A stretch of 64,000 bases of DNA from Octopus vulgaris (taxonomy: Eukaryota), in the NCBI GenBank assembly GCA_951406725.2, contig OX597817.1:105214001-105278000 (forward strand), in the 5' to 3' direction. Shown in pieces: positions 3,403 through 62,802 of this stretch. The first letter of the stretch is position 1. Every line of letters starts with the position of its first letter. The position numbers and the translations under genes were made by a program. The notes under the pieces are model-generated. The model did no database searches. It was not told the origin of the DNA and saw only the letters and a program-made list of their open reading frames with translations.

Positions 3403-3880
3403 GGGTACACTAGGTATATGCATCGCAACCATATGCGCGTGACATGATGACCTCTTATCAAGATAAACAACTTTTGACCTTGCAGGTGGGGCCCAGTCTA
3501 AATTTTCTTCAGGTCTAGTAGCCCAACCCGCTCAAAAGGTCCCTGGATAAAGGTTGTTTAAGGATGATGAACGAAACACCATGTTTCCAGAAGTGAATTA
3601 TTTAAACCCCAAAGAGTCCCACTCAGCACATGGCTATGATGCTCCCCCACTATTCCTGTTCATGATCAGAAACGCACATATCGTCAGACTTTAACTAGTT
3701 GAGCCGGTTAAAGCTCAACTGGTTAAAGTCAAGTAACTTACAAGCAATCTCTTATATTGAGCAGAATATTTGCTTTAACCCATCTTTTATACCAGGACAA
3801 AACATGTACTTGGTAACACTTCCAATCAGTTAAAATAAAAAGCCAAGAGAACCACTGTCTGGTATTGCATCAGAACAGTT
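3403..3880 (-). mobile_element. Non-autonomous retroelement associated with (TAA)n, partial copy
   Basis: 3403-3793 aligns by eye with 4422-4782; it abuts a tta/ttg simple repeat. Confidence 0.75.
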
Positions 3881-4333: not shown

Positions 4334-5393
4334 TAGTGAGAGAGCAGTTCATGCCATCAAAGTGACACTGGGGTAAAATATACGAAGCCCAATATACCCA
4401 TCATGACTACCCGTCTGATAAAGGTACACTAGGCACATGCATCACAACCATATGTGCGCGACATGGTGATCTCATATCAAGATAAACAGCACATGACCTT
4501 GCAGGTGGGGCCCAGTTAGAATTTTCTTCAGGTCGAGTAGCCCATCCCGCTCAAACGGTCCCTGAATAAGAACCACCCATGTTTCCAGAGGTGAACTATT
4601 CAAACCCCAAAGAATCCCTCTCAACACACGGCTATGATGCTCCTCCACTACTTCTGCTCGTGATCAGAGATGCACATATCGTCAGCCACTAAGGGACATG
4701 CTCAACTGGTTAAGGTCAAACAACTGACAAGCAAATCTGTGGTATTGAGCAGAATATTTGCTGTAGCCCATCTTTTATACCATTTGTACTCTATAGATGC
4801 TAAAACCTTACATCCAGAGATTAGGTGGTCGACTGTTTCTATCCCATCGTTGCAGTATGGGCACTTTGGTTCTACACCATTTTTCATCATATTGGCTTGA
4901 TAGTTCCGGGTCAATAAGCTCTGACCTTGGGCAGCCAAGATAAAGCCTTCACTCTCTGCCTTTAGCCCTGAGCTCCGTAGCCACTGATGGGTGTGCTTCT
5001 GGTCTACATCAGCTTGTTTGCTACGGGTCGCATATTTGCCATGGGTGGTTTTTGTTCCCACCCATCAGCCAATTGTTCTAGCGCATTTTACTTTGATCTT
5101 GATTTCACCTCCTTTGCAACTACAGTTGCTGCACTTCCTTCACGCTGTTCAACCTGGGTATTATGCATAAACTCACTTGAAAAGTGTTTTGCTCTCCTTC
5201 ATAACAGAATGAAGCTTCTCACGTCTTTCATGGTTTTCAACGAGCTTTAGCAGCCAGTCATTTGATGTTTAAAGATATTTTGCCAATCCAATTGTGGTGG
5301 TTTTGTATGAGATTTCAAACTGGATCAAACCTCGACCTCCTTGAGCTCTGGGTAGGTAAAGACGATCTGCGTCTGCCTTTTGGGTGGGACATC

Positions 5394-6260
5394 TTATTGC
5401 AAGTCAGCAACTCTCTCTCTCTCTTTTACTCTTTTACTTGTTTCAGTCATTTGACTGCGGCCATGCTGGAGCACCGCCTTTTTGTCAATCTTCCTTATTT
5501 CGCTCATATTCCAGTTCAACACATTGAAACTGTAAATAACAACAGGAACTGCTAATGAATTTATAGCTAACACCTTGTTACGTGCATTTAACTCAGATTT
5601 TAGGACTGCCCGAACTCTCCTGTAAGACTCCTTCTCTTTCATACTTGCATGTTGAATGCCAGAGCCCTCATTTATTCCGAGGTATTTGTAAGTTTGTTCC
5701 TGCTCGAGCTCTTTTATGACTGTGTCAACATCCAACACCACTGAATGTGAGATATTCAGTTTCCCTTTCTGGAAAGTAGCCTTGGCACATTTATCAAGAT
5801 CAAATTCCATCCCAATGTCATCACTGAATGCTTTCACAGTACGTAGTAGTTCTTCAAGCTCATCATCGTCTTTGCCATAAAGTTTTAAGTCAACCATATC
5901 AAATAGATGACTTATTTTCTTCTCGCCAATTTTATATCTATACCCTCTTCTGTTGAGTTCACTTGTAAGGGGTATTAGGGCTATGCAGAAAATTAGAGGT
6001 GAAAGTGAGTGACCTTGGAAAATGTCGCAGTTGATATTAATATTTTTTGTGGTCAGTACTCCATCAGAGACGTATAACTGGAGATTTGTATTCCACATTG
6101 ACATGTTGTGTTTCAGGAAGTTTGAAATCACAGGAGAAATTTTGAAGATATCCAGCGATTTCAAGATCCATGAATGCTGTGTGCTGTCGAAGGCAATTTT
6201 ATAATCAATCCATGCAGAACTAAGATTTCTGCGTTTGTTATGACAGTTCTCAAGGATCAT
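5394..6260 (-). pseudogene. Reverse transcriptase core fragment of the R4/Dong LINE
   Basis: RT motifs in the 288-aa ORF; catalytic YxDD mutated to DMVD; interrupted near 5411-5478 by a SINE 3' fragment. Confidence 0.9.
5411..5478 (-). mobile_element. SINE 3' fragment inserted into the LINE
   Basis: cttttacttgtttcagtcatttgactgcggccatgctggagcaccgcc is the reverse complement of the SINE end at ~23729-23780; LINE coding resumes on each side (KIDKK | LLTCNKMSHPK). Confidence 0.85.
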
Positions 6261-6901
6261 GCGATTGATTAGGAGTTAGTCTTTGCATCCATATAAGCCT
6301 CGTCGGCACCCTTTTTGTTTAGTAGGGAAAATATCGTTCTATTCCATAAATGTGTATATTTTCTCCACGAGAAAGTTTATACGTGGTTGATAGACATGTT
6401 ATGGGCCGGTAGTTTTGGGGAAATTTGGTTTCATTACTCTTCGGGAGTAGGTAAGTAATACCTCTTGCTAACCAGTCGGGTGTTTTTGCACGGCCTCTCA
6501 TAATTTCATTGATTAACTGGACTAACTTTTCGTGTGCGCACGGGAGCGAGGCGAGCCAAAAATTCGGTACCCTATCATTAGCAGATTTCCAATTATGAGC
6601 CTTTGTAAGTGTCATCCTTAGGTCTGCTATTGTGATATCTTCTCTTGCTTGCACTGGTAAGTTTTGGTAGGATCCAGCCTGCATTTTCCTTATAAGTCTT
6701 TTCATTACTCTAGATATTTTCCCAGAAGTTTTCAACTTCTTCCATGGCTTCTTCAACAGTTATTTTCTTCTTCCCTATTTCTCTGTAGATCGTTTTCGCA
6801 TTGGATTTGAACAACTTATTTTGTCTGTAAAATTTGTTTCTCTTATCAAATCTTCGTATTCTTTGAGATTTGGCTTGGACTAATTATCATCATCATCATC
6901 A

Positions 6902-10336: not shown

Positions 10337-11581
10337 TGAGAGGTGTTCATTAAAGAATTCCTATGACCCACTTCCCTTGGACTGGAATAAACTTGGCATG
10401 ATTATTAGCCCTTCTCTGCATAACCACCACCAATGGCGACACACTTCTTCCATCGCTTGATGCAGCTGTGAAGACCTCGTTTGTAGAAGTCAGTAGGTTG
10501 CGCCTGGTGCCAAGACTTCAACTCGAAAATAAGTTCATCATCATCCAAAAAGTGCTTCCTTTTCAAAAGATACTTCATGGTTTGGAAAGAGGTCAGATGG
10601 TGCGAGATCGGGAGTGTAAGGGGGATGAGGAAGGATTTCATAACCGCAGGAGTGTGATTTCTTCTGGGCAACGTGCGCATTGTGAACTGGAATGTTGTCT
10701 TGGAGGAGGCAGACTCCTTTGGTCAGCATACCCGACTTTCTGCTTTGATGGCGTCCCGCAATTTCTGTCGAAGAGAAGCATAATATTGTGGTACCCTTTG
10801 CCAGAAAATCCACCATCACTAACCCGCGCTGGTCCCAAAAACCTGTGAGCATCACCTTGCCTGCTGAGGGTTGGACACGAACCTTCATTGGAGGTGATGA
10901 GTTATCATGCTTCCATTGCTTCAATTGGACTTTAGTCTCATGATCATAATGACGGACCCATGCTTCATCCTGTGTGATAAATCTACCGAAAAAGCTCTCC
11001 TCGTTTATTGGCACATTGCCAAAAGAGGCTGGGAGCAATTGACTCGTTCCTGCTTCTGAAAAGGTGTGAGCATACGGGGAATATATCGTGCAGATAACAT
11101 CCGCATGTGCACATGGTTGTAAATTATTTTTTTCACGGATCCTACACTTATCTTCACTTCTTGGGCTAGGTGCTGAATGCGGTGATCCTCCAAAATGGCG
11201 GCTTCCACTTTATGAATGGCGTCGTCATCAATGTCGGAATGTGGTTGTCCACCGATGTCCAACCGCATTTGAACTTACGATGCCAGTGCTTGACTATGTC
11301 GTATGACGGTGCATCGTCACTATAAACTTCTTTCATCTCATCGGAAGTCTCTTTGGTGTACAACTTTTCAAGTATAAGAACCTGATCACTGATCTGCATT
11401 CAACTGGCTCCATTATAACATCTTAGTCCATTTCAGCAATCGTAAAAGACAAATGAATACTAGTGGAAAGCTGCGATTTACAATGTGACATGTAGAGACA
11501 TGTATCATTATATTTGTACAAGTTCCATTTCCTGCACTAACCGGAAGTGGGTCAGAGGTAATCTTTAATGAACACCTCTCG
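10337..11581 (-). mobile_element. Full-length decayed mariner transposon
   Basis: ~38-bp TIRs (gagaggtgttcattaaaga...tgacccacttcc) with TA at both ends; transposase motifs TQDEAWV, LLQDN, HPPYTPDLAPSD and YIPRML (WVPHEL-like); frameshifted. Confidence 0.93.
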
Positions 11582-12139
11582 TAATTGTAGTTTTTAAAGG
11601 CGAGAGAGTACCCGTTGGCATGCATGTGTATGTGAATGAATACGTGTATGTGTGAAAACGCGCGTATGCATGACTATAGAGGGTACGAGCAGTGTGCTTG
11701 TGTGAGGGAGTGCTTGGTTGGTTAGATTAGCAGTGTCTGTGTGTGATTAGAGTGTGGTATAGGTTAGTTGTGTGTATGTGTTTAGGTGCATTGTGTGTGT
11801 GTGTGTGTGTGCGTGTGTGCGTGTATGTGTGCGTGTATGTGTGCGTGTGTGTTTATGTGTGAGTATATAGGAGGCATGAGTAGTGTGGGTACAGGTGTGT
11901 AGGTGCCTACATACCTACACGCACATTACTCATACCTCTCTATACGGACAATGATAGGGTAATGGGATTGGCAGTGTATGCGTCAGTGACTGTGCGTGTC
12001 TGTGTTTATGTATATGAGTGTATGTGTACCGCGCTCACACACTCACACACTCACACACTCACACACTCACACACACACGCGCGCGCGCGCGCGCAAATTA
12101 ACGCATGCATGTACATATGATTATACCCATGCGAAAATA

Positions 12140-13401
12140 TCAGGTTATTAAGAATGCAATCTCTGATTTTGAACTGGAAGTTTATTTTACTTTATCTCAA
12201 CAAAATGCCATGCAGTTAATCAAAGTATGCATCTAAATTATCAACACAATTTTGCCATTTTATCGGTAGCTTATTTATACCGGTTGCGAAGAATTCTGGA
12301 AAGCAAGAGGTGATGAAATCACGAAAGGTTGTTTTTGCATCTTCTTCAGATTTGAAGTTCTTTCCTTGCAAAATGTTGTCTAACACCTGGAAAACGTGAT
12401 AGTCAGTTGGTGCAAAGTCTGGTGAATATGATGGATAACATAGTACTTCCAAGTTCAGTTCTTGTAACTTGGGTAGCGTTCTTTGTGCAACATGTGGAGC
12501 ATTGTCTTGCAAGAGAATTGGACTGTCTCTATTGACCAATCTCGGTTGTTTAATTGCAAGTTCACTCATCATTTCATCCAACTGGTTGATGTATACATCC
12601 GCTGTAATTGACTTACCAGGTCTTATGAAGCTGTAGTGGATGACACCAGCGCTGGACCACTAAACTGACACCATTAGCATTTTTTGGTGAATATTCTTTT
12701 TTGGATTGTGTTTTGGAACTTCGTCTTTATCTAACCACCGTGAAAAACGCTTGCTATTGTTTAAAAGAATCCGTTTTTCATCACACGTAACAATATGATG
12801 CAAAAATGGTTCGCTTTTATGCCGTGACAGCAAAGAACTTCAAGTTTCAAGACGACGTGTCATTTGATGCTCGTTGAGTTCGTGTGGTACCCACTTGTCC
12901 AGCTTCTTTACTTTGCCGATTAGTATCAGATGGTGCAATACAGTTGGAATCAAAACATAAAACCCTACTGCTAACTCACGCATAGTTTGAGATGTATCCA
13001 CTTCCACTACAGTTTCCAACTCATCCACCTTGGACTCAGGTTTGATTGTCAAGAGTAAAGTCACCAGACCGGCACTTCTCAATCTATCGCCATACAGTGC
13101 GCTCATTCGTCACGTCTTCACCAAACACCTCATTGATGTTTCGAGTTGTTTGGGATGCATTGGTCCCAAGACGGAACTTATATTCATAAACACGAATTTT
13201 TTTATCTATCCATGGGTTCACAAAAATTGATTTACAAGAAAAACTTACAATATAATTAGACATCCCGAATTGCATTTCGGAAAGCGATGATGTAACTCAT
13301 CAATGTTGTAAAACAAAGAATTGTCAGGATAAAACATGTTAGTCAATGACTAACAAACATGGTGCATAAGAAAATCAGACATTTCATTCTTAATGACCTG
13401 A
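12140..13401 (-). mobile_element. Full-length decayed mariner transposon, second family (Hsmar1-like)
   Basis: TIRs tcaggttattaagaatg.aat.tctgatttt with TA flanks; KWVPHEL, ILLQDNA and YSPDFAPTDYH motifs; multiple frameshifts. Confidence 0.93.
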
Positions 13402-20462: not shown

Positions 20463-21175
20463 GTCTACGCAGAAGTATTATCTGATACTGTGGGATAGGA
20501 ATCAGAGAATATTTAGCACGGATATACGATATATTTCTTTGCCATAACAAATAGCTAGCCAAGTACGCAGCTCAGTTACTATTTCCGGTTAGAGAAACTT
20601 CGCTTCCTTTTTATACTGCTACTTTCTGTAGCTTTCAATCTTACAAAAACATTTTATTCACTAAAGGGTTTTTAGTCTCTTTTTTTCTCAACTTTCCGAA
20701 TCAATTTATTCTCAAGGATTATTCTCCCTATCATCAGAAGTGTAAGAGAAAAGTCATACATACACGCATCCATCCATCCATCTATCCATCAATCCATCCA
20801 TCCATTCATACATGCATACATGCATCCATTCATACATACATACATACATACATACATACATACATACATACATACATACATACATACATACATTAATGGT
20901 TGTCTTTATATTGAGTTATAATGAAAACAATGTTATCCTAAACTGAAGGATAACTGAGTACTCTTTGTAAAGGACATATTCATTATTCTTTAACAAGAAT
21001 GGTATTGACAGTGACTTCGAAATCACTGTCAATACTATTCTTGTTAAAGAATATATATATATATACACATACACACAAATATATATACACATCCATTCAT
21101 TCATCTATTCATACATACATACGTACATACATACATATATACATGCATGTATGCATACATACATACATACATACA

Positions 21176-23393: not shown

Positions 23394-23788
23394 AGGCGCA
23401 GGAGTGGTTGTGTGGTAAGTAGCTTGCTTACCAACCACATGGTTCCGGGTTCAGTCCCACTGCGTGGCATCTTGGGCAAGTGTCCTGCTATAGCCCCGGG
23501 CCGACCAATGCTTTGTGTGTGGATTTGGTAGACGGAAACTGAAAGAAGCCTGTCGTATATATGTATATATATATATATGTATGTGTGTGTATATGCTTGT
23601 GTGTCTGTGTTTGTCCCCCTAGCATTGCTTGACAACCGATGCTAGTGTGTTTATGTCCCCGTCACTTAGCGATAGAATAAGTACTGGGCATACAAAGAAT
23701 AAGTCCCGGGGTCGATCTGCTCGACTAAAGGCGGTGCTCCAGCATGGCCGCAGTCAAATGACTGAAACAAGTAAAAGAGAGAAAAGAG

Positions 23789-24236: not shown

Positions 24237-24280
<44 letters not shown>

Positions 24281-24285
<5 letters not shown>

Positions 24286-24844
24286 AAGAAAAATAAGTTG
24301 GCTAGCAGCAAGCTGTTTCGCCTCATACCGAAGGAATTAGAAATGGCAGAATTTTGGAAGGAAAATTTACGTTCCCAGGCGTTACTTGGTTTTAACATCT
24401 GCGCACTTCCCCCCACTATCTGATGTCGCTGGGTCAGAAGTGAGGGCTGGTGGCATTTGATAAAGCTAACGAATATAGCGCTGATGACGGAATTCAAACT
24501 CACCCTTTTTTTATATGTTTGTGATCCAGAAACACCGTGTTCGCTATTAACGGTAAGTGACTGAATTCGTATATTTGCTACTCCGGTTTTGTGTATGTGA
24601 GCCGCAAGGGCCTTCGTTTTTGGAACCTCCACTTATAGAAATGGAAAAACGGTCTTTGACTGCCATTTCTAATTCCTTCGGTATGAGGCGAAACAGCTTG
24701 CTGCTAGCCAACTTATTTTTCTTTACTATATACTGAACCTTACAAAGGTCTTGACAATTATTTTGTCGTATTTACATACCGAAATTTACCGGTAAATAAT
24801 TGTTGGTTACATGAAAAACCACAGGAAAATTATTTACCATTTTT

Positions 24845-28760: not shown

Positions 28761-31046
28761 CCATGACGATTATTACGAATATAAAATATCATAGTTTTCT
28801 TGCGTTTGTGTGTTTGTGTACGTACCCCCCTCTCTCTGCATGTATGAATGTGTGTGAGCGTGTGAGTGTGTATAAGAGTGTTTTAGTGTGTATGCGTGTG
28901 TTAGTGTGTGTGTGTGTGTGTTAGTGTGTGTGTGTGTGTGTGTGTGTGTTCTCTCGATTACGACTGACATGGGACAAAACAATCACGACTACTCCAGCTT
29001 ATTTAGTTATAAACTTTTGATTCTTTCCTCTTTGCATCGTTATATTGTTATCTATTTTAAACTTTCTAGTGAGCAAAATAAAACTATATTTTAACGTTAT
29101 TAATGTGGGTGTTTAAAAGAAAAGCGTGAGATAGAGAGAGGGAGAGGACATGCCTGTGTGTGTGTGTGAATGTGCACATGTGTGTGTGAATGTGCACATG
29201 TGTGTGTGCGTGCATGGGTATGTGTATTTTGAAGAAAAACAGTAATTTCATTGGTTGAAAAGCATTGACATAAAACCGGTTTTGCTCCCCAGTTGTGTTC
29301 GATGCATGCCCTATACGAGAAGAAAAGACTCGGGGAATAATGTATTTCTTCTTCTTCTTCTGATATATCTGTGTGTGTGTGTGTGTGTGTGTTTACATAC
29401 ACACACATCACAAACACATTTATCTGTTTGTTTGTTTGTCTGTCTGTCTGTATGAATGTATGCATGTAAGAAACTTTATATCTGGTCCATGAGGTATCAA
29501 TCCAGGTCTTCAAACACGCTTTCTTACTACAGACTGGTTTCATGCAAGACAATTTTCTGAAAGACTGAGAAATCACACGCATAACAAAACACATAATGTA
29601 TCATTTAATTATTACATATATAATATATGTATACAATGCCAAAATGTCCTGTAGACTTCGGCAGTCAATAAAAGAAAAAGATTTTAAAATGTATACTCCT
29701 TGTGCGGACCGTGGCCTGGTACAGCTCCGCGGCCCAGCGGCTGAGGTCTCCTGAATTAGAGCATTGACTTTTCGAAAAATCACTTTGTTATCAAAGTGAC
29801 TTTTAATTCCACTAAATAATCGACGCCATTCATGTGAATTGATCTCCAAAAGAATTTTGATTTAGATGTATTTATGGTAAGAAGCAACTAAATTTCCTTC
29901 TCAAAAGTTCTACGTAATTCAACCTACACAAGTTAATGTGTGAATAACAAAATATGAATTTTGAAAGAAGTATCTATAAAACTAGCTTTAAACATCGAAT
30001 GGCTATGGGGGTCCACCAGAACAGAATAGTAATCAAAGGGACCCATGGTTGGAAAATGATTGAGAACTACTAATTTAAACCAATGAAATTAGAATAACAC
30101 TTGATAAAAATGACATCCTCCTACTCGTGAACATTCTATTACTTTCATGTATAGTAACCTTTTTTCTTTTTCTTTCTTTATTTTCTTTATTTATTTTTGC
30201 TTTTCTGAAATATGACTGACTAGCTTCGTTTTAAACAAGCGATGATATTTAGCATTCATATTGCAATTTTAGTCTTATTTTTCTTTTAAAGAAAATATCG
30301 TCTGGGTTACGCACGAAGACATTTAATTGTTTCCCAACTGAAATCTTTTGTTAGAGCTTTCAAGTATTGTATTTGTTAGACGTTTTAGAATTGAGCTCGT
30401 CCATTTCATGATTGCACCACGCACAATATTTTGCTGAATTTCTTATATCTGATGTTACTCAAGTGAACTTTATGCCAACTTGATATTTAATTTAGAGCTA
30501 TGCCTTTTTCCTGGAACATAAATATCTCAAAGCTTTGACATACATTTTACATTTGACTTGCTTTGATATTTTTCTTTTTGCAAATTACTAAATTAAAAAG
30601 AAATTGTTTGAAAATTAATTTAGATCACTGCTATCAAAATGTACGAGGTTTTATTTTATTCTTTACAAATTTAGCGAGTATTTTCTTCCGTGTGAACTAT
30701 TTTCAAAGTTAGTGGCCTCATTGTAATATCTACTGGAGCTAAGTTTTATATTTTCCCTTTCAATACTCTCTCTCACTCTCTCTCTCTCACACACACAAAA
30801 AGGCCGAACACAAACGTATGGAATATTTTTTCTGTATATGTGTTAGAATGTATTTTGCACTTTTAATCGGTTGCAGAATGAAATAGAATTGCTCTCCTCC
30901 TATTTTCAAGTATATTTCTATTAACAATAATTCATCTTTTCATTCCCAATACGTTTTGGTAGATTTGGACTCGAATACCTTGTCGCTGTTGTTTTCCATC
31001 ATCGAAAGACATCTCTTTTTACACAAGCGATTCACCGGAGTAAGGA

Positions 31047-31101
31047 AACTTTGAGACACCAAGGTGTTTCGACCTTATTGCGTGTCTCCTCAATCAAAGT
31101 T
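31047..31101 (-). ncRNA. Type I hammerhead ribozyme, copy 1 of a tandem pair
   Basis: Reverse complement aactttga-TTGAGGA-gac(acgcaataag)gtc-GAAA-cac(cttg)gtg-TC-tcaaagtt: 8-bp stem I, 3-bp stem II, 4-bp stem III, GUC cleavage site; only C3>U deviates. Confidence 0.8.
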
Positions 31102-31375
31102 ACACCAATGAACTAATAAATGTAACAAGAGTGCAGGCTCTTGTTTATAGAAATCAGCAAACAAATTATTTTCTGATGCGTGATGATGTCTTTCAGACAG
31201 ATAATAATTCATGAGATGCACGCAGAACACCGGGAATCAAAACAATAAAATATCTATCAATTTATGTGTTCTAGTAGAATATCTGATAGTTATTGATTCC
31301 CCCCTCCCCATCGGAAAATATCTCTTTCCTTTAGACTATGTATTCATACCACACGCATTTCACCGGTGTGAGAGG

Positions 31376-31429
31376 ACCTTGAGACACCGAAGTGTTTCGA
31401 CTTTACTGCGTGCCTCCTAACTCAAAGTT
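31376..31429 (-). ncRNA. Type I hammerhead ribozyme, copy 2 (core decayed)
   Basis: Reverse complement aactttga-GTTAGGA-ggc(acgcagtaaa)gtc-GAAA-cac(ttcg)gtg-TC-tcaaggt; stems retained, with a cUUCGg loop on stem III. Confidence 0.65.
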
Positions 31430-32864
31430 ACTCCACCGGACAGATGAGCTCTAACAAGAGTTAGAGGTGCGTTATTGATTAGATCCCCGCTGTTCTGTAT
31501 GCGTCCCGTGGATTATACTATTCTTATTGTATTTCACTTTCTTTTTAATTAATTTCTTTTTTGTATAGCATATGTTATCAGGAATAGAGCTGTGTCTTAA
31601 AGATAGACTTGTGTAAAAAAAAAGTAAAATTACCAAAAAAAAAAAAAGGTTAGTTGCATCAGTAAAAGGTTTGGACATCCTAGCTTCAGTAGCGTTTCTG
31701 TGGTTCCAAAACATGGCAAAAAAAAAAAAACATTGTGTTACCTAGTCTTTTGGTGATTGGGTTTGTATATGGGAAATTGGATGATGGCAGAAAGGCAAAA
31801 AAATACAATAAAAACAAAGATTTAAATATGAAATATAAAATTGGTGATGCTATAAACTAATAAAATATTGTCTTTCTCCTTTAGAGATAAAACAAACTAG
31901 CCTCCTTCAACGGCTGAAAGATACAGCCATTACACAGATGAAAAAGTCTTGTAACACTACTCCTTCCATACTGAGGAAAAACAAAGCTAAAACTGTTGAG
32001 TTGCCGGCAGATCAACCTCACAAATGAAATACCAAAGTATTTCGGGTAAACGTTATTTGAGGATGCCAATAATATAAAAGTAAATTAACAGAGAAATGAA
32101 ACTAAATTTTTTTTTAAAGGGGTGGGAATGGTAATAGTAACATTGGAAATAAATAAAAAATAAACTGCACGTCTCATTAACGTAGTGCATCCCAATATAA
32201 GCGTTAACCGTTTTACGAGATATGCGCTTAATCTCGAGTACTTGGTTTTCATAAAGTGATAAAACTTTATATTCATGAAGTTATTAATGACTTAATGCCT
32301 TTCGTGGGCCCAAATATTGACGGTGATGAGCATTCATATGCAGACTATTGAACAGAAATGGATGGATGTCAACAAAGAAAAAATGCAATAACAATACGGA
32401 AATGAGCGATGCTTTTGTCCACATCTTGTTCGCAAGATACATACAGCGGATTTAAAATTGATAATCATGAATACATATTCGCGATTCTAATTCGTTCTAT
32501 AAATGAAAATTTTATTATAATATAAATATATGGTTTTCATGTTATGTAATGACATTAAGTTTCATTATTTTGGTTTCTTTTATTTCTTTCCTATTTTACT
32601 GTCGTTACTTCCGTTTTTTTCACTTTAATTTCTTTCTTTTTTTCCATTTTTTACAGTCTAAAATAAGAATTAACTGGATTCTCGCTGTCCTTTAGCCTCT
32701 TGTCTGTTGATAATATTCTGAGATCAAACATTATCACCTCTTGCATCCGCATCGGTCTTCATCTACCAGAGCGTCTTCCGTTACCAGTACCTCTTTCCAT
32801 GACTCATCGTCATTTTGCTTCCCACATCATGCTAGCTGGTCGTTACTCCTGCACACGTCAGTCC

Positions 32865-33526
32865 TCTACGTTAGTAATGCCAGATCATCAGCATAGTCTA
32901 GGTCTGTTACTGTTACTGCTTGATACCGTCTACTTCTTTGCTTGTGCTGTTTGAAACCCAGTTCTTCTTCCTTGCCCTCTTACGTTCTACGTATTACATA
33001 GTTCAGAACGATGGCGAAGCGATAAGGTGCTAGCGTGTCGTCTTGTAATACTCCGGCTTTGTCTTTAAAGTATTCCGTTTCTCCATGAGGAGTGATCACT
33101 TTCGCTCTGGTGTTCTCATTCAGCTTACTTATTGCTCTTAGAATTCTTGGTGGAATGTTATATGCTGTTATACAAGGATGCTTAGAATGGTACTCAAAGT
33201 CTCCTGGAAGCGTCATACAACAAACTCCGACTTATACCAAGGACTACCAAAAGTAACGTTGAAGATACGGGATAGAAGGATGAAGTTAGCTGGACACGGC
33301 ATCAGACACACCGATGAAATTGCTAGCAAGCTAGTGCTCTGGCAACCAACGGAAGGAAGAACCAGGAGAGGAAGGAGGAAGATGACCTATATCGACAACT
33401 TACTGGAGGATACTGGTATGGAACGGGTACAGGAGCTGAGGACCATTATGGAAGATCGAGATGAATGGGGAAAACGTGTGGAAACAGTTTTGGGGCGTCC
33501 TGTGGCACGACCTAGATAGATAGATA
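32865..33526. mobile_element. RTE-clade (RTE-X-like) LINE fragment with 5' inversion
   Basis: Minus strand 33170->32865: AYNIP..GVLQDDTLAP..TDLDYADDLALL; plus strand 33170-33519: YTRMLRMVLKVSWK..RRMKLAGH..LVLWQP..RGRRKMTYID..; (TAGA)n tail. Confidence 0.88.
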
Positions 33527-33742: not shown

Positions 33743-34705
33743 CAGGAATCCCTCGTTTTACGGAAATAATGCGTTCCTGAAATTCCGTTGTACGAAATTA
33801 ATTTTCTTATTGATTTTCGTATTATCAATATTTAAATATACACCGTAGAATACAGATGCATAAAAATACAAAACTTTTCAAGAGGAATACGTTAGGGAAT
33901 TAATACGTATCGTAATATTGTAAGCGTATGCTCTTACCACAAAAAATGTTGACTATTGTGTGAGGGTGGTGGTGGAATGAACGTTACTAGGAGGATGAGG
34001 GACAATACTTACTATCTTATCGTTCATTATCCCGAACATCAACTTGTCCAAAGTTGTTAGTTGTTTGTGATGCGTCATCTCTTATGTTCATGATTAGGAT
34101 CATTATCAGCAAGAACCTGCAGAGCTTTCCTGTATAAGTGCCAATCCTGAACAAATAATTTTTGTAGTCAATTTAAGTTGTGTAGGTGGAACTTCCGTTA
34201 TCTCATCTGTATTCTCAGCTTGTTCTTTTTCTAACAGCATCAGCTCCTCGTTAGATAAACTTTCTCTCTGAAACATTAGAAACTCAATCATATCATCCTT
34301 TATGACTTTTTCGAATCCTACATCCTTTGCAAATATCACGATATCTTGCCGAATTTGACGTAGACTTTCTACCCAAGGAAAACTTGTAATGTTACGGATA
34401 CAGTCTGGCTATAAACTTTTCCAAGAACTTTACAAAGTTGAAGGTTTCAGTTCATCCGATGACTCACCTAAATTATCCACAGCATCATGTTAAAATTTCT
34501 TTCAAAAATCTCAAACTGTATGTTTATACTCCCTATCAATTGCTTAAGATGTTTGAAAGTGCACATATGATATGCTTTGAAGTTAACTTCGATTTATTGG
34601 CTGGAGCAAAGTTGCATTCTTAAGGACATACATATATTCCAGTCACTTTATCAGTAAGATTATCTAAATTTGCAGGGTGGCTCGGTACATTGTCAAAAAG
34701 AAGTT
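33743..34705 (-). mobile_element. Tigger/pogo transposon remnant
   Basis: TIR-like caggaatccctcgttttacg; minus-strand LLFDNVPSHP and ..TLLQP.. (pogo DDE_1 LDNAPGHP / TSLLQPMD); C-terminal ..ESLSNEELMLLE.. Confidence 0.72.
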
Positions 34706-36286: not shown

Positions 36287-36406
36287 CATATATACATACA
36301 TACATACACACACACAAAACACACAAAACGCACACACATACATACACATAATAAGGGTAGCTTGTTAACAATTTTTCAACCGAAAGGCAAAAATATATAC
36401 GTCACA

Positions 36407-36610
36407 AAAGCAACTGAGGGCACTAGGCAGCACCAATATTGCTAGAAATAAGAGCGAAAACAACTCATAGCCACAATAACGCACCGTCTTATTTACTGAC
36501 AAAGGAGAAGGAGCTTGACTCTCTTGTTAGTAAATAAGACGGCGCGCTCTGAATTGTTTTGAATCTTATTTCTAGCAATACTGGTGCTCAATGGTACTCA
36601 CAGTCGCTTT
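36407..36610. repeat. ~200-bp imperfect palindrome (fold-back)
   Basis: gcaccaatattgctagaaataaga / tcttatttctagcaatactggtgc and gcaccgtcttatttactgacaa / ttgttagtaaataagacggcgc. Confidence 0.82.
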
Positions 36611-36632
36611 AGTCACACACGCACACACACAT

Positions 36633-37500: not shown

Positions 37501-37705
37501 GACCCATAACTGTATCCTGTAAGGAAACCAACCAAGCAGAACGACAAGCTTGACCACGGAAGAAAAATGTCATCAATTTTTTGACGAATCAAAATCAGAT
37601 CTGACTCATAACTCTATCCTGTAAGGAAACCAACCAAGCAGAATGACAAGCTTGATCACGGAAGAAAAACGTCATCAATTTTTTAACGAATCAAAATCAG
37701 ATCTG
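37501..37705. repeat. Tandem duplication, 102-bp period
   Basis: gac.cataact.tatcctgtaaggaaaccaaccaagcagaa...caaaatcagatctg occurs twice, starting at 37501 and 37603. Confidence 0.92.
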
Positions 37706-38646: not shown

Positions 38647-39845
38647 ACATGAGTTAAAATAATAAAATAAGAACAGTAATAAACGAGTGAAGAAAAAATA
38701 AATAGTGCGTGTGTTTATTTGGCAAAAACAAAATAACCATCCTGATACACACACACACACACTTACAGAGGCATACTTATGTTTTATAAAATATTCTCTA
38801 TATCACCATATATTTTTTATTTGTTTTTTTCCACTTCGGTATTGTGTGGTAGCCCCGCACCCCAATCTTTATACTATTAAATATGTTCGCGATGACCGAC
38901 GTAAAACTGAATACATTGACTGAAATTGAAGTTTATTTTCCAAATTATTAAAAAAAAACAAACTATGTAAAGTCGAAAAAGACGTAACTCGAAATGACGT
39001 AAGTTGAGATACGCCCGTGTGTATGTGTGTGTGCACGCGCGCGCGTACACATACACATATACACAAGCATACAAGTGTGCGTACTCTTCCTTCGAGAGCA
39101 GTTGTCATTGTTGACGTTGATGAATGATGCATGATGATGATCTAAAGAAATATGAAACTAAGAAAATATAAGACAATACAATGAAACCCGAAAAGATTTA
39201 TTGAACACCAACACCACCACCACTACTACCTCCAACCCTATTTCCACCCCACACCAACACCGTTATTTTCAAGTTGAACGTTAATTAAAATAGATTATTA
39301 TCGTGAGGCATATGCCGAACTTATGGAGCTAGTACGAATCTAATGTTACAACTGCTTCTAATCATTTGAACTATAATATATATAATTATTATATATATAT
39401 ATAAAGAGAAGCAAGCGTGCTGATATCTAGTTATGAATTTATCTGAATTAAGTATCCAGCTGAAACGAACACGACTCTGTAACATCAACAAAAAGAAATG
39501 TAGGGTAGTAGCAGCGGGCTTAGACGTGACCTATTTACTTACCTCAATGATTTATATTGACTGTCATTGCGATAGCCTCTCCTCTCTCTCCCACTCTCTC
39601 TTTCTGTCTCTCTCTCTCTCTCTTTCTGGAAACTGTATCCTGGTAAGGGTACATGGCAGATCAAAGTATTTTTTCAAGGTCAAGGTCAAACGTGAACGTG
39701 GCAAACACGTACACAATTATACGCACGCGTGCGCTCGCATACACACATACACACAAACACACACTCACACACACATATACACTCATATTTGCATACGTGT
39801 GCAAGTATACATATATGTATATGTATGTATATATATATATATATA

Positions 39846-40470
39846 CAGCAGTTGGGCAAAATGGAAACGCCTTAAAATTTTAAGCAAATCTATTTTAATA
39901 TGAGGTAGGACCACTTTGGCAGTAATTACAGCTTGAGTTGTACGAGGCATGGACTCGTACAAAGTTTGAATTGTTTCTAAAGGAATTTTTGTCCATTTTT
40001 CAGCTAAAACAGTCTCCAGTTCTTGTAGTGATGATGGTGGAGGATATCGACTCCTTACTTGTTTTTCTAAAATGCACCATAAATGTTCAATAATATTGAA
40101 ATCTGGGGACTGTGATGGCCTGATAAGATGTTCAACTTCACTAGAATGTTCCTCGTGTCGTTCAGTAACAACTTTAGCTGTGTGAATTGGTGCATTATCA
40201 TCCTGAAAGATTGCGTTTCCCTCCGGAAACAGTTCCGCGACCATATGATGAATTTGATCAGATAAAATGCTTAAATAGTCTTGACTATTAATTCTGCCAT
40301 GAAGGGAAACCATTGGGTCGGCAGATTTCCAAGATATAGCCCCCCACCCACCAGATCATCACAGATCCTCCTCCACGTTTAACAGTTGGAAGAAGGCAGT
40401 CTGGGTCAAATGGTTCTTTTGGCTGTCTCTACACCTACACTCGGCCGGTGGTCGGAAATAAGGTAAATAA
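39846..40470 (-). mobile_element. Tc1-family transposon 3' half
   Basis: TA|cagcagttgggcaaaa end; PTVKRGGGSVMIW, IFQDDNAPIH and SQSPDFNIIEHLW motifs. Confidence 0.9.
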
Positions 40471-43860: not shown

Positions 43861-43936
43861 ATTATTTATAATTTCCTAACAGTGTGTGTATAAGCATAAC
43901 TCATACATACATACAAGCATATATATATATATATAT

Positions 43937-45089
43937 ATATGTTAATAAAATATATGCATATATATAAACATATATGTACGTACCTACCTCTACATGTACA
44001 TATACACGCATATATGTGTACAGGACACCAAAAGGACGTCGAACACATAGAGAGACGAAAAACATAGACACAAACCAAGGAACAAGACAAGCAAAAAAAA
44101 GGAGATACAGGACAATAAGCACAACGAAAAACCCCCTTCTTCAGTCGCTAAAGTTTCATCTACTAAACGTTTCAAAGGATAAAAGCGAGACGTATACTTC
44201 GAATGAAAAATTCCTTCCTACGAAAAGCAAATCAATTAAAATTCTGAGATCTTGTCGCAGAGGGGTAAAAAAAGCAAGACGGTAATGACAGTACAAACAT
44301 ATAAACAGTAAAAAATATATATATAAACAGTGGAAAAATAAATATATAACAGTGAGAGACAGGACAAGGAGAACAAGATAAGAAGGGCTGTTAACGCCAG
44401 ACGAAAAAAGTATTGCAAACGCTGGATTATAGTGGACGACGAGAGAGGAAGATGTCGACCAGTGGCCTTAGAAGGCAGGTGAGAAAAGACGGGATAGCAG
44501 TTACGACGGAAGTACGTCGCAGATGGACGACGGGAATGGGGGAGGAGGAGTAAGAGGAAGAGAGAGAAGAAGGGGAATGGTGTGAGGAGACCATGAAGAA
44601 CAGTGAGGGGGAGAGAGAGAGGAAGAGACAAGTTAAGTGAGGGAAAAAAAGACGAAAAAGGGAATGGGAGAGAAAGAAAGAAAGATGCAGAGTCGCGTGA
44701 GAGTTAATATCAAGGCGAACTTGATAAACAGAACAATCTTACTTAATAGGGTGCGTGCGTTTAGTCGTATAATATGTTAATAAAATATATGCATATATAT
44801 AAACATATATGTACGTACCTACCTCTACATGTACATATACACGCATATATGTGTACAGGACACCAAAGGACGTCGAACACATAGAGACGAAAAACATAGA
44901 CACAAACCAAGGAACAAGACAAGCAAAAAAAGGAGATACAGGACAATAAGCACAACGAAAAATCCCCTTCTTCAGTCGCTAAAGTTTCATCTACTAAACG
45001 TTTCAAAGGATAAAAGCGAGACGTATACTTCGAATGAAAAATTCCTTCCTGCGAAAAGCAAATCAATTAAAATTCTGAGATCTTGTCGC

Positions 45090-45092
<3 letters not shown>
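43937..45092. mobile_element. (TA)n-inserted element with ~322-bp direct terminal repeats (Penelope pLTR-like partial tandem)
   Basis: 43937-44261 is nearly identical to 44772-45092; non-coding purine-rich spacer; no TG..CA LTR ends. Confidence 0.72.
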
Positions 45093-61123: not shown

Positions 61124-61177
<54 letters not shown>

Positions 61178-61414
61178 AATGTGAGGTTAAAATTCTTTTT
61201 CTCGAAAAAAAATTTATCAATGGCCAGCATATTAAAAAATATCTTTAACCGGTTAAATTTATAAGCAATTCATAAATGAGGGCAAAGGAAAAAATTCTAA
61301 TGCCAAATATGCCGAAAAATTGGACATATTGTCCATTAACCATATAATTTTTTCACAATACGCACGTTACTCGAAAAAAGGTCGACAGAAATTTCTAAAA
61401 TATTCCATTATTAC

Positions 61415-61473
61415 CATATCGGACCGATTTCAGAGTTAGCTACTAAGAGCCCTCTCTTCGTCAGTGATACATG
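61415..61473 (-). ncRNA. Minimal type I hammerhead ribozyme (left arm)
   Basis: Reverse complement of the fold at 61892-61950. Confidence 0.65.
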
Positions 61474-61891
61474 TGGTAAAAGAAATAAATGAGGTACTTA
61501 CTCATACCCATGGAAGAAGCAAATACTAAGTCATGGGCACAACTAAGTACCCCAAATACATCCAAAATAGAAATACTCCAGCCCATTCGAGGCATGTGCG
61601 ATTTGAACTGAGGCTCTCATAGAGTGAGTTAGTTAGTTCGGAAGTGAACGCTTAAATTTATATCAAATTTATATCAAAATTTTTTTCGAAAAAAATTTTA
61701 TCCTCACATTTAAGCGTTCACTTCCGAACTAACTAACTCACTCTGTGAGAGCCTCAGTTCAAATCGCACGTGCCTCGAATGGGCTGGAGTATTTCTATTT
61801 TGGATGTATTTGGGGTACTTAGTTGTGCCCATGACGTAGTATTTGCTTCTTCCATGGGTATGAGTAAGTATCTCATTTATTTCTTTTGCCA

Positions 61892-61950
61892 CATGTATCA
61901 CTGACGAAGAGAGGGCTTTTAGTAGCTAACTCTGAAATCGGTCCGATATG
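61892..61950 (+). ncRNA. Minimal type I hammerhead ribozyme (right arm)
   Basis: gtatca-CTGACGA-agag.ag.ggct(tttagt)agct.aa.ctct-GAAA-tcg-GTC-cgatat: intact core, 4+4-bp stem II, short near-palindromic stem III (ATCGGT), stem I with an A.C mismatch next to the core. Confidence 0.68.
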
Positions 61951-62802
61951 GTAATAATGGAATATTTTAGAAATTTCTGTCGACCTTTTTTCGAGTAGCG
62001 TGCGTATTGTGAAAAAATTATATGGTTAATGGACAATATGTCCAATTTTTCGGCATATTTGGCATTAGAATTTTTTTCCTTTGCCCTCATTTATGAATTG
62101 TATATATATATATATATGACGGGCTTCTTTCAGTTTCCATGTACCAAATCCACTCATAAGGCTTCGGTCGGCTCAAGGTGCCACGCAGTGGGACTGAACT
62201 CGGAACCATGTGGTTGGTAAGCAAGCTTCTTACCGTACGGCTACACTTGGGCCTCTTATTTTAGATTTTTATTATGCATTTCTTGAATGTAAACCAATCC
62301 CTGTATTTGAACGGTATTTTATTTATTTTGTTTTGCCTTTCATCTTCCTGAATGAAAGACCAAATTTAGCGTCGGAAGGGTTGAGAACGTAAGAAGCGTA
62401 ACTAAATTCTGCACGCAGTAAATCGCAGTATTTGTCCCGACTCTTCTACTTTCTGAGTTCAAATATCACCTACGTTAACTTTACCTTTATCCTTTCGGGA
62501 TCGATAAAAATAAAAAAAAAGCACCGGTGGATAGGAGGAGCTATTAGAACGTCGGATTGGATGCTTTGCAATAGTTGTTCAAGGAAGTTTGAGTTCTGAG
62601 CATGACCTACATGGTTAGTAGACGTAAACCATCTCCTTATTTAACAGTACCATTAAGCACTTTGGGTGCCTTAAGTGGGGTTCAATTTGTTGCAAGCATT
62701 CAGACAAAGATTCGTTCCGCCTCTGTTCCAGTCCCGAAGCCCTGACGTGAACCGAAGGCAAATGATTTCCCTCTGTTGATCGGTAATGTATATATATATA
62801 TA

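Follow-up and report, generated by a model that had tools for sequence, protein, structure and literature searches.

We analysed a 64,000-nt stretch of the Octopus vulgaris genome (GCA_951406725.2, OX597817.1:105,214,001-105,278,000, forward strand; hereafter the window, in which all positions are numbered) that contains a diverged direct repeat, each copy of which carries a type I hammerhead ribozyme motif on the minus strand. We read this locus, with a probability of roughly 0.7, as the fossil left by insertion of a non-autonomous repeat with hammerheads that belongs to the Penelope orbit, in other words an animal non-LTR (long terminal repeat) retrozyme in the broad sense. The reading draws on the anatomy of the two ribozymes, on the length and non-coding nature of the repeated unit, and on the geometry of the insertion, in which a partial tandem meets an inverted piece at its 5′ end. 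An earlier note on this DNA had interpreted it as an old dimer of a retrozyme family, which is partly supported: the repeat is indeed old, divergent and non-coding, but the tandem is partial rather than a clean dimer.

The repeat carries genuine type I hammerhead anatomy, confirming the observation from which the analysis started: the two diverged direct repeats are homologous blocks, and both can take the form of a hammerhead on the minus strand, at 31376-31428 (right, upstream) and 31048-31100 (left, downstream). Each copy possesses three helices, the GAAA segment, the GUC site, a stem II of 3 bp closed by a 10-nt loop and a 4-bp helix III, so that the earlier description of a stable stem III rather than the minimal Penelope type is borne out. 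In the left copy, stem I pairs 31100-31094 with 31054-31048 (8 bp counting the next pair), and the core UUGAGGA at 31093-31087 provides U3 U4 G5 A6 G7 G8 A9. Its stem II is GAC/GUC around the 10-nt loop, GAAA lies at 31070-31067, stem III consists of CAC/GUG plus the pair A15.1-U16.1 closed by the loop CUUG, and the cut is predicted after C17, at 31055. The right copy forms stem I between 31428-31422 and 31382-31376 (7 bp including one G-U), has the core GUUAGGA at 31421-31415 (G3 U4 U5 A6 G7 G8 A9), a stem II of GGC/GUC and a 4-bp helix III with the loop UUCG, and is predicted to be cut after C17 at 31383, where G3 is able to pair with C17. The predicted cut sites (31383 and 31055) are 328 nt apart; the spacing of 329 bp reported previously is valid solely 5′ of a 1-nt indel.

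Neither core is intact. The left copy has one core mismatch (U3) and the right two (G3 and U5), as the earlier note had seen in suggesting inactivity, and a zero-mismatch descriptor misses both. Distal extensions of stem I also exist in both copies (31105-31112 with 31031-31038 on the left; 31431-31439 with 31363-31372 on the right), but they are not equivalent to one another: the two distal stems use different registers, the left copy breaking 4/9 pairs of the right register and the right copy breaking 2/8 pairs of the left one. A separate observation concerns 31055-31086 and 31383-31414, where the end of the core and the 5′ strand of stem II are able to form 7 bp with the strand of the cut site; this alternative fold would hide the cut site in both copies, and the single change within it retains both pairings via G-U.

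The direct repeat consists of copy A (31350-31461, minus strand) and copy B (31022-31132, minus strand), which are identical at 86 of 111 columns, with 25 differences. Within the window the pair is found by BLAST at E 6e-18, and its local score is 90 where the best of 300 shuffles attains 30; the repeat is no product of chance. The monomer between the cut sites covers 31055-31382 (328 nt, minus strand, GC 37.5%) and contains an imperfect hairpin at 31232-31301 (minus strand, -17.2 kcal/mol). Folded as a circle it is 62% paired at -80.3 kcal/mol (z -2.2), a modest result that 4/150 shuffles equal. Beyond the left hammerhead lies a tail (30923-31018, minus strand) that aligns with 31241-31327 over 82 bases, 58 of them identical, with three gaps; 5/500 shuffles do as well. 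Some 90-100 nt 3′ of each hammerhead are thus weakly homologous, and this homology stops at 30923, which is probably the 3′ end of the insertion, ~130 nt beyond the cut site. On the 5′ side of the right hammerhead, homology spans just 30-40 nt before the inverted piece is reached.

This inverted piece, overlooked in the earlier note, occupies 31472-31516 (plus strand) and is a 45-nt inverted copy of 31204-31248 that faces the tandem's 5′ end in head-to-head orientation. It is identical to its source at 35/45 positions without a gap, a match equalled in 0/300 and 0/1000 shuffles, and the window contains no further 45-mer with as many as 26/45. In monomer coordinates the insertion therefore runs from inverted +135 to +179, through ~+241 to +328 and one full monomer, to +1 to ~+130, making a partial tandem of ~1.7 units; the 5′ ends of both pieces meet at the junction and their 3′ ends point outward. 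We also considered the inverted piece as the mere other arm of the internal hairpin and rejected this: the arm accounts for ~17/45 nt, and the hairpin overlaps just the initial third of the inverted segment.

As stated earlier, no open reading frame (ORF) lies between the copies: the monomer is non-coding and without a Pfam match. Its longest open stretch is 48 codons on the hammerhead strand and 58 on the opposite one, and the longest Met-started stretch in the repeat is 40 and 69 codons, respectively. The Pfam search covered 150 frames of the window, of which 132 were drawn from 242 longer, non-repetitive ones and 18 were short frames near the locus; those under 50-63 codons were mostly excluded. 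Within or beside the element it found no family in any scanned frame. Eight of the 150 frames match LINE (long interspersed nuclear element) reverse transcriptase (RT) or mariner/Tc1, one more has a sub-threshold Kelch match, and a GIY-YIG domain or host gene occurs in none. Nor did a six-frame reading reveal a remnant of RT or GIY-YIG near the locus.

The rarity of the hammerhead motif was estimated on dinucleotide-shuffled windows. With at most one core mismatch and stems of at least 7/3/3 bp, the descriptor has one real match, the left copy, and matches in 13/2366 shuffled windows; with up to two core mismatches it has two real matches, and at least one match occurs in 100/2366. A first trial of the descriptor had given 0/20 shuffled windows. 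Because the copies are homologous, the two matches count as one event, with p ~0.005. The covariance-model check proposed in the earlier note came back empty, Rfam returning no hammerhead match in the window at the gathering threshold or at E up to 10 (clan CL00010). Since Rfam also fails to detect an intact hammerhead pair elsewhere in the window, its blank for this locus carries no weight; on six intact metagenome motifs used as controls it matched three, all under gathering.

Folding energies are similarly uninformative. The minimum-energy structure of both copies is not a hammerhead, at penalties of 9.7 and 3.4 kcal/mol, and these do not discriminate because the window's two intact motifs have penalties of 9.8 and 10.4 kcal/mol; the intact motif at 61901 likewise favours a non-hammerhead fold. 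We rejected folding energy as an activity test, as intact controls span 0-10 kcal/mol. Past the inversion, we also considered a possible further decayed hammerhead (plus strand), which is unsupported (14/1000 and 776/1000 shuffles equal it).

Between the two copies, stems I-III have kept all of their pairs (14/14 in both) through two one-sided G-U changes, and to that extent the earlier claim that differences preserve the pairing holds. Differing positions make up 2/26 in stems against 45/154 in loops, flanks and tails (Fisher p 0.03), and 2/13 in the core. Such conservation of the stems is as expected had selection acted on the fold while the units were diverging. Outside the stems, the units are 0.37 apart (Jukes-Cantor, JC), and if all divergence followed insertion and the host was octopus, the resulting 0.18 per copy would lie near the JC 0.2 at which the Penelope expansion of O. 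vulgaris is dated (PMC13282606).

The state of the cores allows a prediction of present activity. G5 is essential for the hammerhead. At position 3, the Penelope hammerhead of the anole lost its cleavage through C3G alone (PMC11167929), natural U3 is mostly paired with A8 (PMC4209133, PMC3088659), and a halophile variant with U3 and G8 is mentioned (PMC7151607); we located nothing on C3U in the literature. Because it combines G3 with G8 and has U5 in addition, the right ribozyme is predicted to be dead, while the left, in which U3 occurs with G8, may keep weak activity. If so, the locus should release no monomer or circle today.

A history that would produce this locus can be proposed by analogy with the studied families, for which self-cleavage of multimers, circularisation, more-than-unit reverse transcription and insertion through Penelope machinery are discussed (PMC7229834, PMC7761336, 10.64898/2026.07.22.740005). 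An ancestral multimeric transcript would have cut itself at successive hammerheads into ~330-nt monomers, and these would have circularised. A Penelope-type RT/endonuclease supplied in trans may then have copied more than one unit, starting ~100-130 nt 3′ of the hammerhead; a second priming event or a template switch could have left the head-to-head inverted piece, and the inserted copy would afterwards have decayed. The anole Penelope element offers a comparison for the starting point, its hammerhead cutting at ORF nt 26 and its reverse transcription starting 111-118 nt into the ORF (PMC11167929); here, homology stops ~130 nt past the cut.

Several results weigh against reading the locus as a fossil retrozyme-type insertion. 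No compensatory change separates the copies: 0/23 and 0/22 pairs are altered on both sides, and the test of stem conservation is itself biased, intact stems being what drew attention to the locus. At 22-29% divergence, the two units differ more than one recent rolling-circle copy would yield. The homology of the tail is weak (p ~0.01), and the inverted piece is short, an attempt to extend it being equalled by 240/1000 shuffles. No target-site duplication was found, the one 7-mer detected lying away from the inferred ends, and there is no microsatellite at either end of the locus, although the flanks are AT-rich; decay of the ends would obscure any 30-40 nt tail. Finally, neither the 64-kb window (nhmmer) nor the viral, metagenome and prokaryote collections yielded a third copy of the 328-nt family.

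Among the alternatives, the two hammerheads could be remnant pseudo-long terminal repeats (pLTRs) of an autonomous Penelope-like element, two termini left in partial tandem after loss of the coding part, or without its ever having been copied. We regard this as unlikely. In its favour, a partial tandem with an inverted 5′ piece is the signature of the autonomous elements (PMC8557442), hammerheads reside in pLTRs (PMC4209133), and retrozymes of Xenopus match pLTRs (10.64898/2026.07.22.740005). The earlier note had set a retrozyme against a Penelope end, but the locus bears Penelope insertion geometry. What separates it from pLTRs is the ribozyme itself, with its 3-bp helix II and 4-bp helix III where metazoan pLTR hammerheads are mostly minimal, and its spacing, direct pairs of pLTR hammerheads being ~3 kb apart (PMC4209133) versus 328 nt here; nor do the scanned frames nearby hold a remnant of RT or GIY-YIG.

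A solitary hammerhead fragment might instead have been duplicated and partly inverted locally in DNA, the tandem then having arisen without passing through RNA. That there are just 1.7 units, with no other copy seen in the window or the collections, would fit such an origin, as would the other local duplications and palindromes of the window. The unit length, however, is one seen in retrozymes, the inverted piece lies precisely at the 5′ end and is oriented head-to-head, and the stems are better preserved than the remainder, which together make a purely DNA-level origin improbable. It is more doubtful still that the pair works today or has been recruited by the host, cutting a transcript or making a circle at the locus. 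The complete pairing of stems I-III in both copies and the mention of a halophile U3 + G8 core (PMC7151607) could be cited for it, as could the DNA runs under three organism labels that hold at least 0.72 of the sampled words of 30700-31700. Against it stand the right core with G3 and U5, given that C3G alone eliminates activity (PMC11167929), the usual covariation of natural U3 with A8 (PMC4209133, PMC3088659), and the cleavage of predicted-active Xenopus dimers in 1/9 cases (10.64898/2026.07.22.740005). That an old duplicated repeat resembles a hammerhead by chance is scarcely credible: there is no Rfam match, no intact core and no covariation, and the 23-letter pattern also turned up on a bacterial contig that has no upstream core, but the left copy's level is reached in 13/2366 shuffled windows, Rfam missed the intact pair as well, and distal stems, spacing and inversion are all consistent with a hammerhead repeat.

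The window contains a second, young hammerhead element at 61176-62112, which is non-coding (longest open stretch 71 codons) and has no significant similarity to the 328-nt repeat. It is built around an 860-nt head-to-head inversion (61254-62112, 94.7%; the arms differ at 12/400 bases), whose midpoint is a short natural palindrome near 61676-61699. Its hammerhead cores, at 61901 (plus strand) and 61464 (minus strand), are intact, with cuts after 61948 and 61417, and 0/20 shuffled windows match them. Because its flanks align contiguously to the dispersed-repeat copy at 23394-23787, overlapping in an (AT)n tract, the element is an insertion into a microsatellite. It has the microsatellite/AT-rich target together with the 30-40 nt tail of the Penelope type. 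A 39-nt A/T-rich central motif is repeated at the outer end of the left arm (33/36, one gap), which suggests a unit of ~474 nt. The element demonstrates that young, non-coding hammerhead repeats have been inserted with the same geometry in this genome, although it might itself represent an autonomous element's truncated terminus. Judged from its sequence, it is a better candidate for a putatively active retrozyme family than the 328-nt repeat.

Taken together, the two loci raise the possibility, which we advance tentatively, that short non-coding repeats with canonical, monomer-competent type I hammerheads are marked in this genome by a Penelope signature of partial tandem, head-to-head 5′ inversion and microsatellite target, as seen in two unrelated families, one old (328-nt unit) and one young with intact ribozymes (~474-nt unit), of a single 64-kb window. 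Retrozyme repeats show no motif naming the enzyme that mobilises them (PMC7761336), and the inversion is a clue to which enzyme moves them in animals. The idea that Penelope does so in trans has so far rested on co-occurrence and, in vertebrates, on likeness to pLTRs (10.64898/2026.07.22.740005, PMC7761336), the evidence of the 2026 preprint being confined to vertebrates (10.64898/2026.07.22.740005). If true, our proposal would add structural evidence from an invertebrate, and the young intact family would make trans-mobilisation testable. In itself the 328-nt locus is of minor importance, being in all likelihood a dead representative of a class already published. Hammerhead counts in such genomes are too low, because Rfam misses even intact examples.

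Scans with sequence patterns reached beyond the window. The viral and metagenome collections, neither expected to hold this repeat, gave 0 matches each, and the prokaryote genomes gave one chance match to the 23-letter pattern, on a 58% GC contig without the upstream core. A relaxed intact-core pattern matched seven metagenome loci (two identical) with the same short stems and no homology outside the motif, which served only as folding and Rfam controls. Intact type I hammerheads occur on the metagenome contigs L001:1501, L003:289, L004 and L006; the flanks of L001 and L006 contain several short direct repeats, and L003 and L004 are 83% alike across 440 nt. The O. vulgaris repeat supplement of PMC13282606 contains neither motif. 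The interval 30700-31700 is partly present in DNA runs of 10 studies, and at least half of its 95 sampled words occur in 7 of the 24 DNA runs listed, under three organism labels; runs of these three labels hold at least 0.72 of the words. The listing includes no RNA run, which is no evidence about expression, and shares of 0.14 in organism E and 0.10 in a run that may be RNA were left out of account. As runs under three labels share the locus, the insertion predates the labels or the labels are near kin.

The window as a whole has a GC content of 29-43% and is rich in microsatellites and dispersed repeats, which appear to be of octopod character. Palindromes or inverted pairs lie at 36401-36616 (71%), 39017-39064 (88%) and 20984-21053 (94%), and 24277-24349 is paired with 24660-24732 (100%); the hammerhead descriptor has no match at any of these four. 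Direct duplications are found at 43932-44261 / 44768-45092 (330 nt, 98%) and 3404-3794 / 4423-4782 (390 nt, 79%), and 37501-37705 holds two copies of a 102-nt unit (94%). Broken LINE RT and mariner/Tc1 transposase pieces matched by Pfam are located at 4705-6759, 10544-13296 and 39786-40355. Two further stretches without a Pfam match are presumably a LINE end (32983-33516) and the end of a pogo-type transposase (34109-34408).

Among known systems, the locus can be compared first with autonomous Penelope-like elements, whose insertions combine a partial tandem with an inverted, 5′-truncated copy at the 5′ end (PMC8557442). It shares with them the partial tandem, the inverted 5′ piece and a hammerhead shortly before the 3′ end, but differs in having neither an RT or GIY-YIG frame among those scanned nor a microsatellite target. 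The hammerheads of metazoan pLTRs are mostly minimal: their helix II is long, A9 is followed by an extra base, and helix III is very short or absent (PMC4209133), unlike the 3-bp helix II, 4-bp helix III and missing extra base seen here. In the giant squid, 235 loci of Rfam Hammerhead_1 (RF00163) were counted (PMC6962438); the available text does not describe them as repeats, and our locus lies below any Rfam threshold. The literature we found includes no octopus retrozymes and no inverted retrozyme insertions, although the supplements of PMC7229834 and of the bioRxiv preprints may list cephalopod examples.

The closest resemblance is to the animal non-LTR retrozymes, described from coral, mussel and axolotl with units of 150-450 bp (350-390 bp in mussel) and GC below 50% (PMC7229834), and treated as non-autonomous derivatives of Penelope (10.64898/2026.07.22.740005). 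The locus is like them in its type I hammerhead, its non-coding unit of a few hundred nt, its GC below 50% and its tandem order: each unit has a hammerhead, is 328 nt long and non-coding, and has 37.5% GC. Salamander satellite-2 and axolotl Rtz_331/353 (PMC7229834) likewise combine a ~330-nt unit with a type I hammerhead, but by their descriptions, on which this comparison is made, their helix III has 1-2 bp and they act as dimers, as opposed to 4 bp here. The inverted 5′ piece is not described for retrozymes in the available texts of PMC7229834 and 10.64898/2026.07.22.740005, and the damaged cores, the 22-29% distance between units and the ~1.7 units set the locus further apart. An active retrozyme has a complete hammerhead in two consecutive units (Li et al. 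2026, 10.64898/2026.07.22.740005), whereas the cores here have one and two mismatches. With the stable helix III that it shares with invertebrate retrozymes (PMC7229834), the locus is probably an additional, dead member of this published class.

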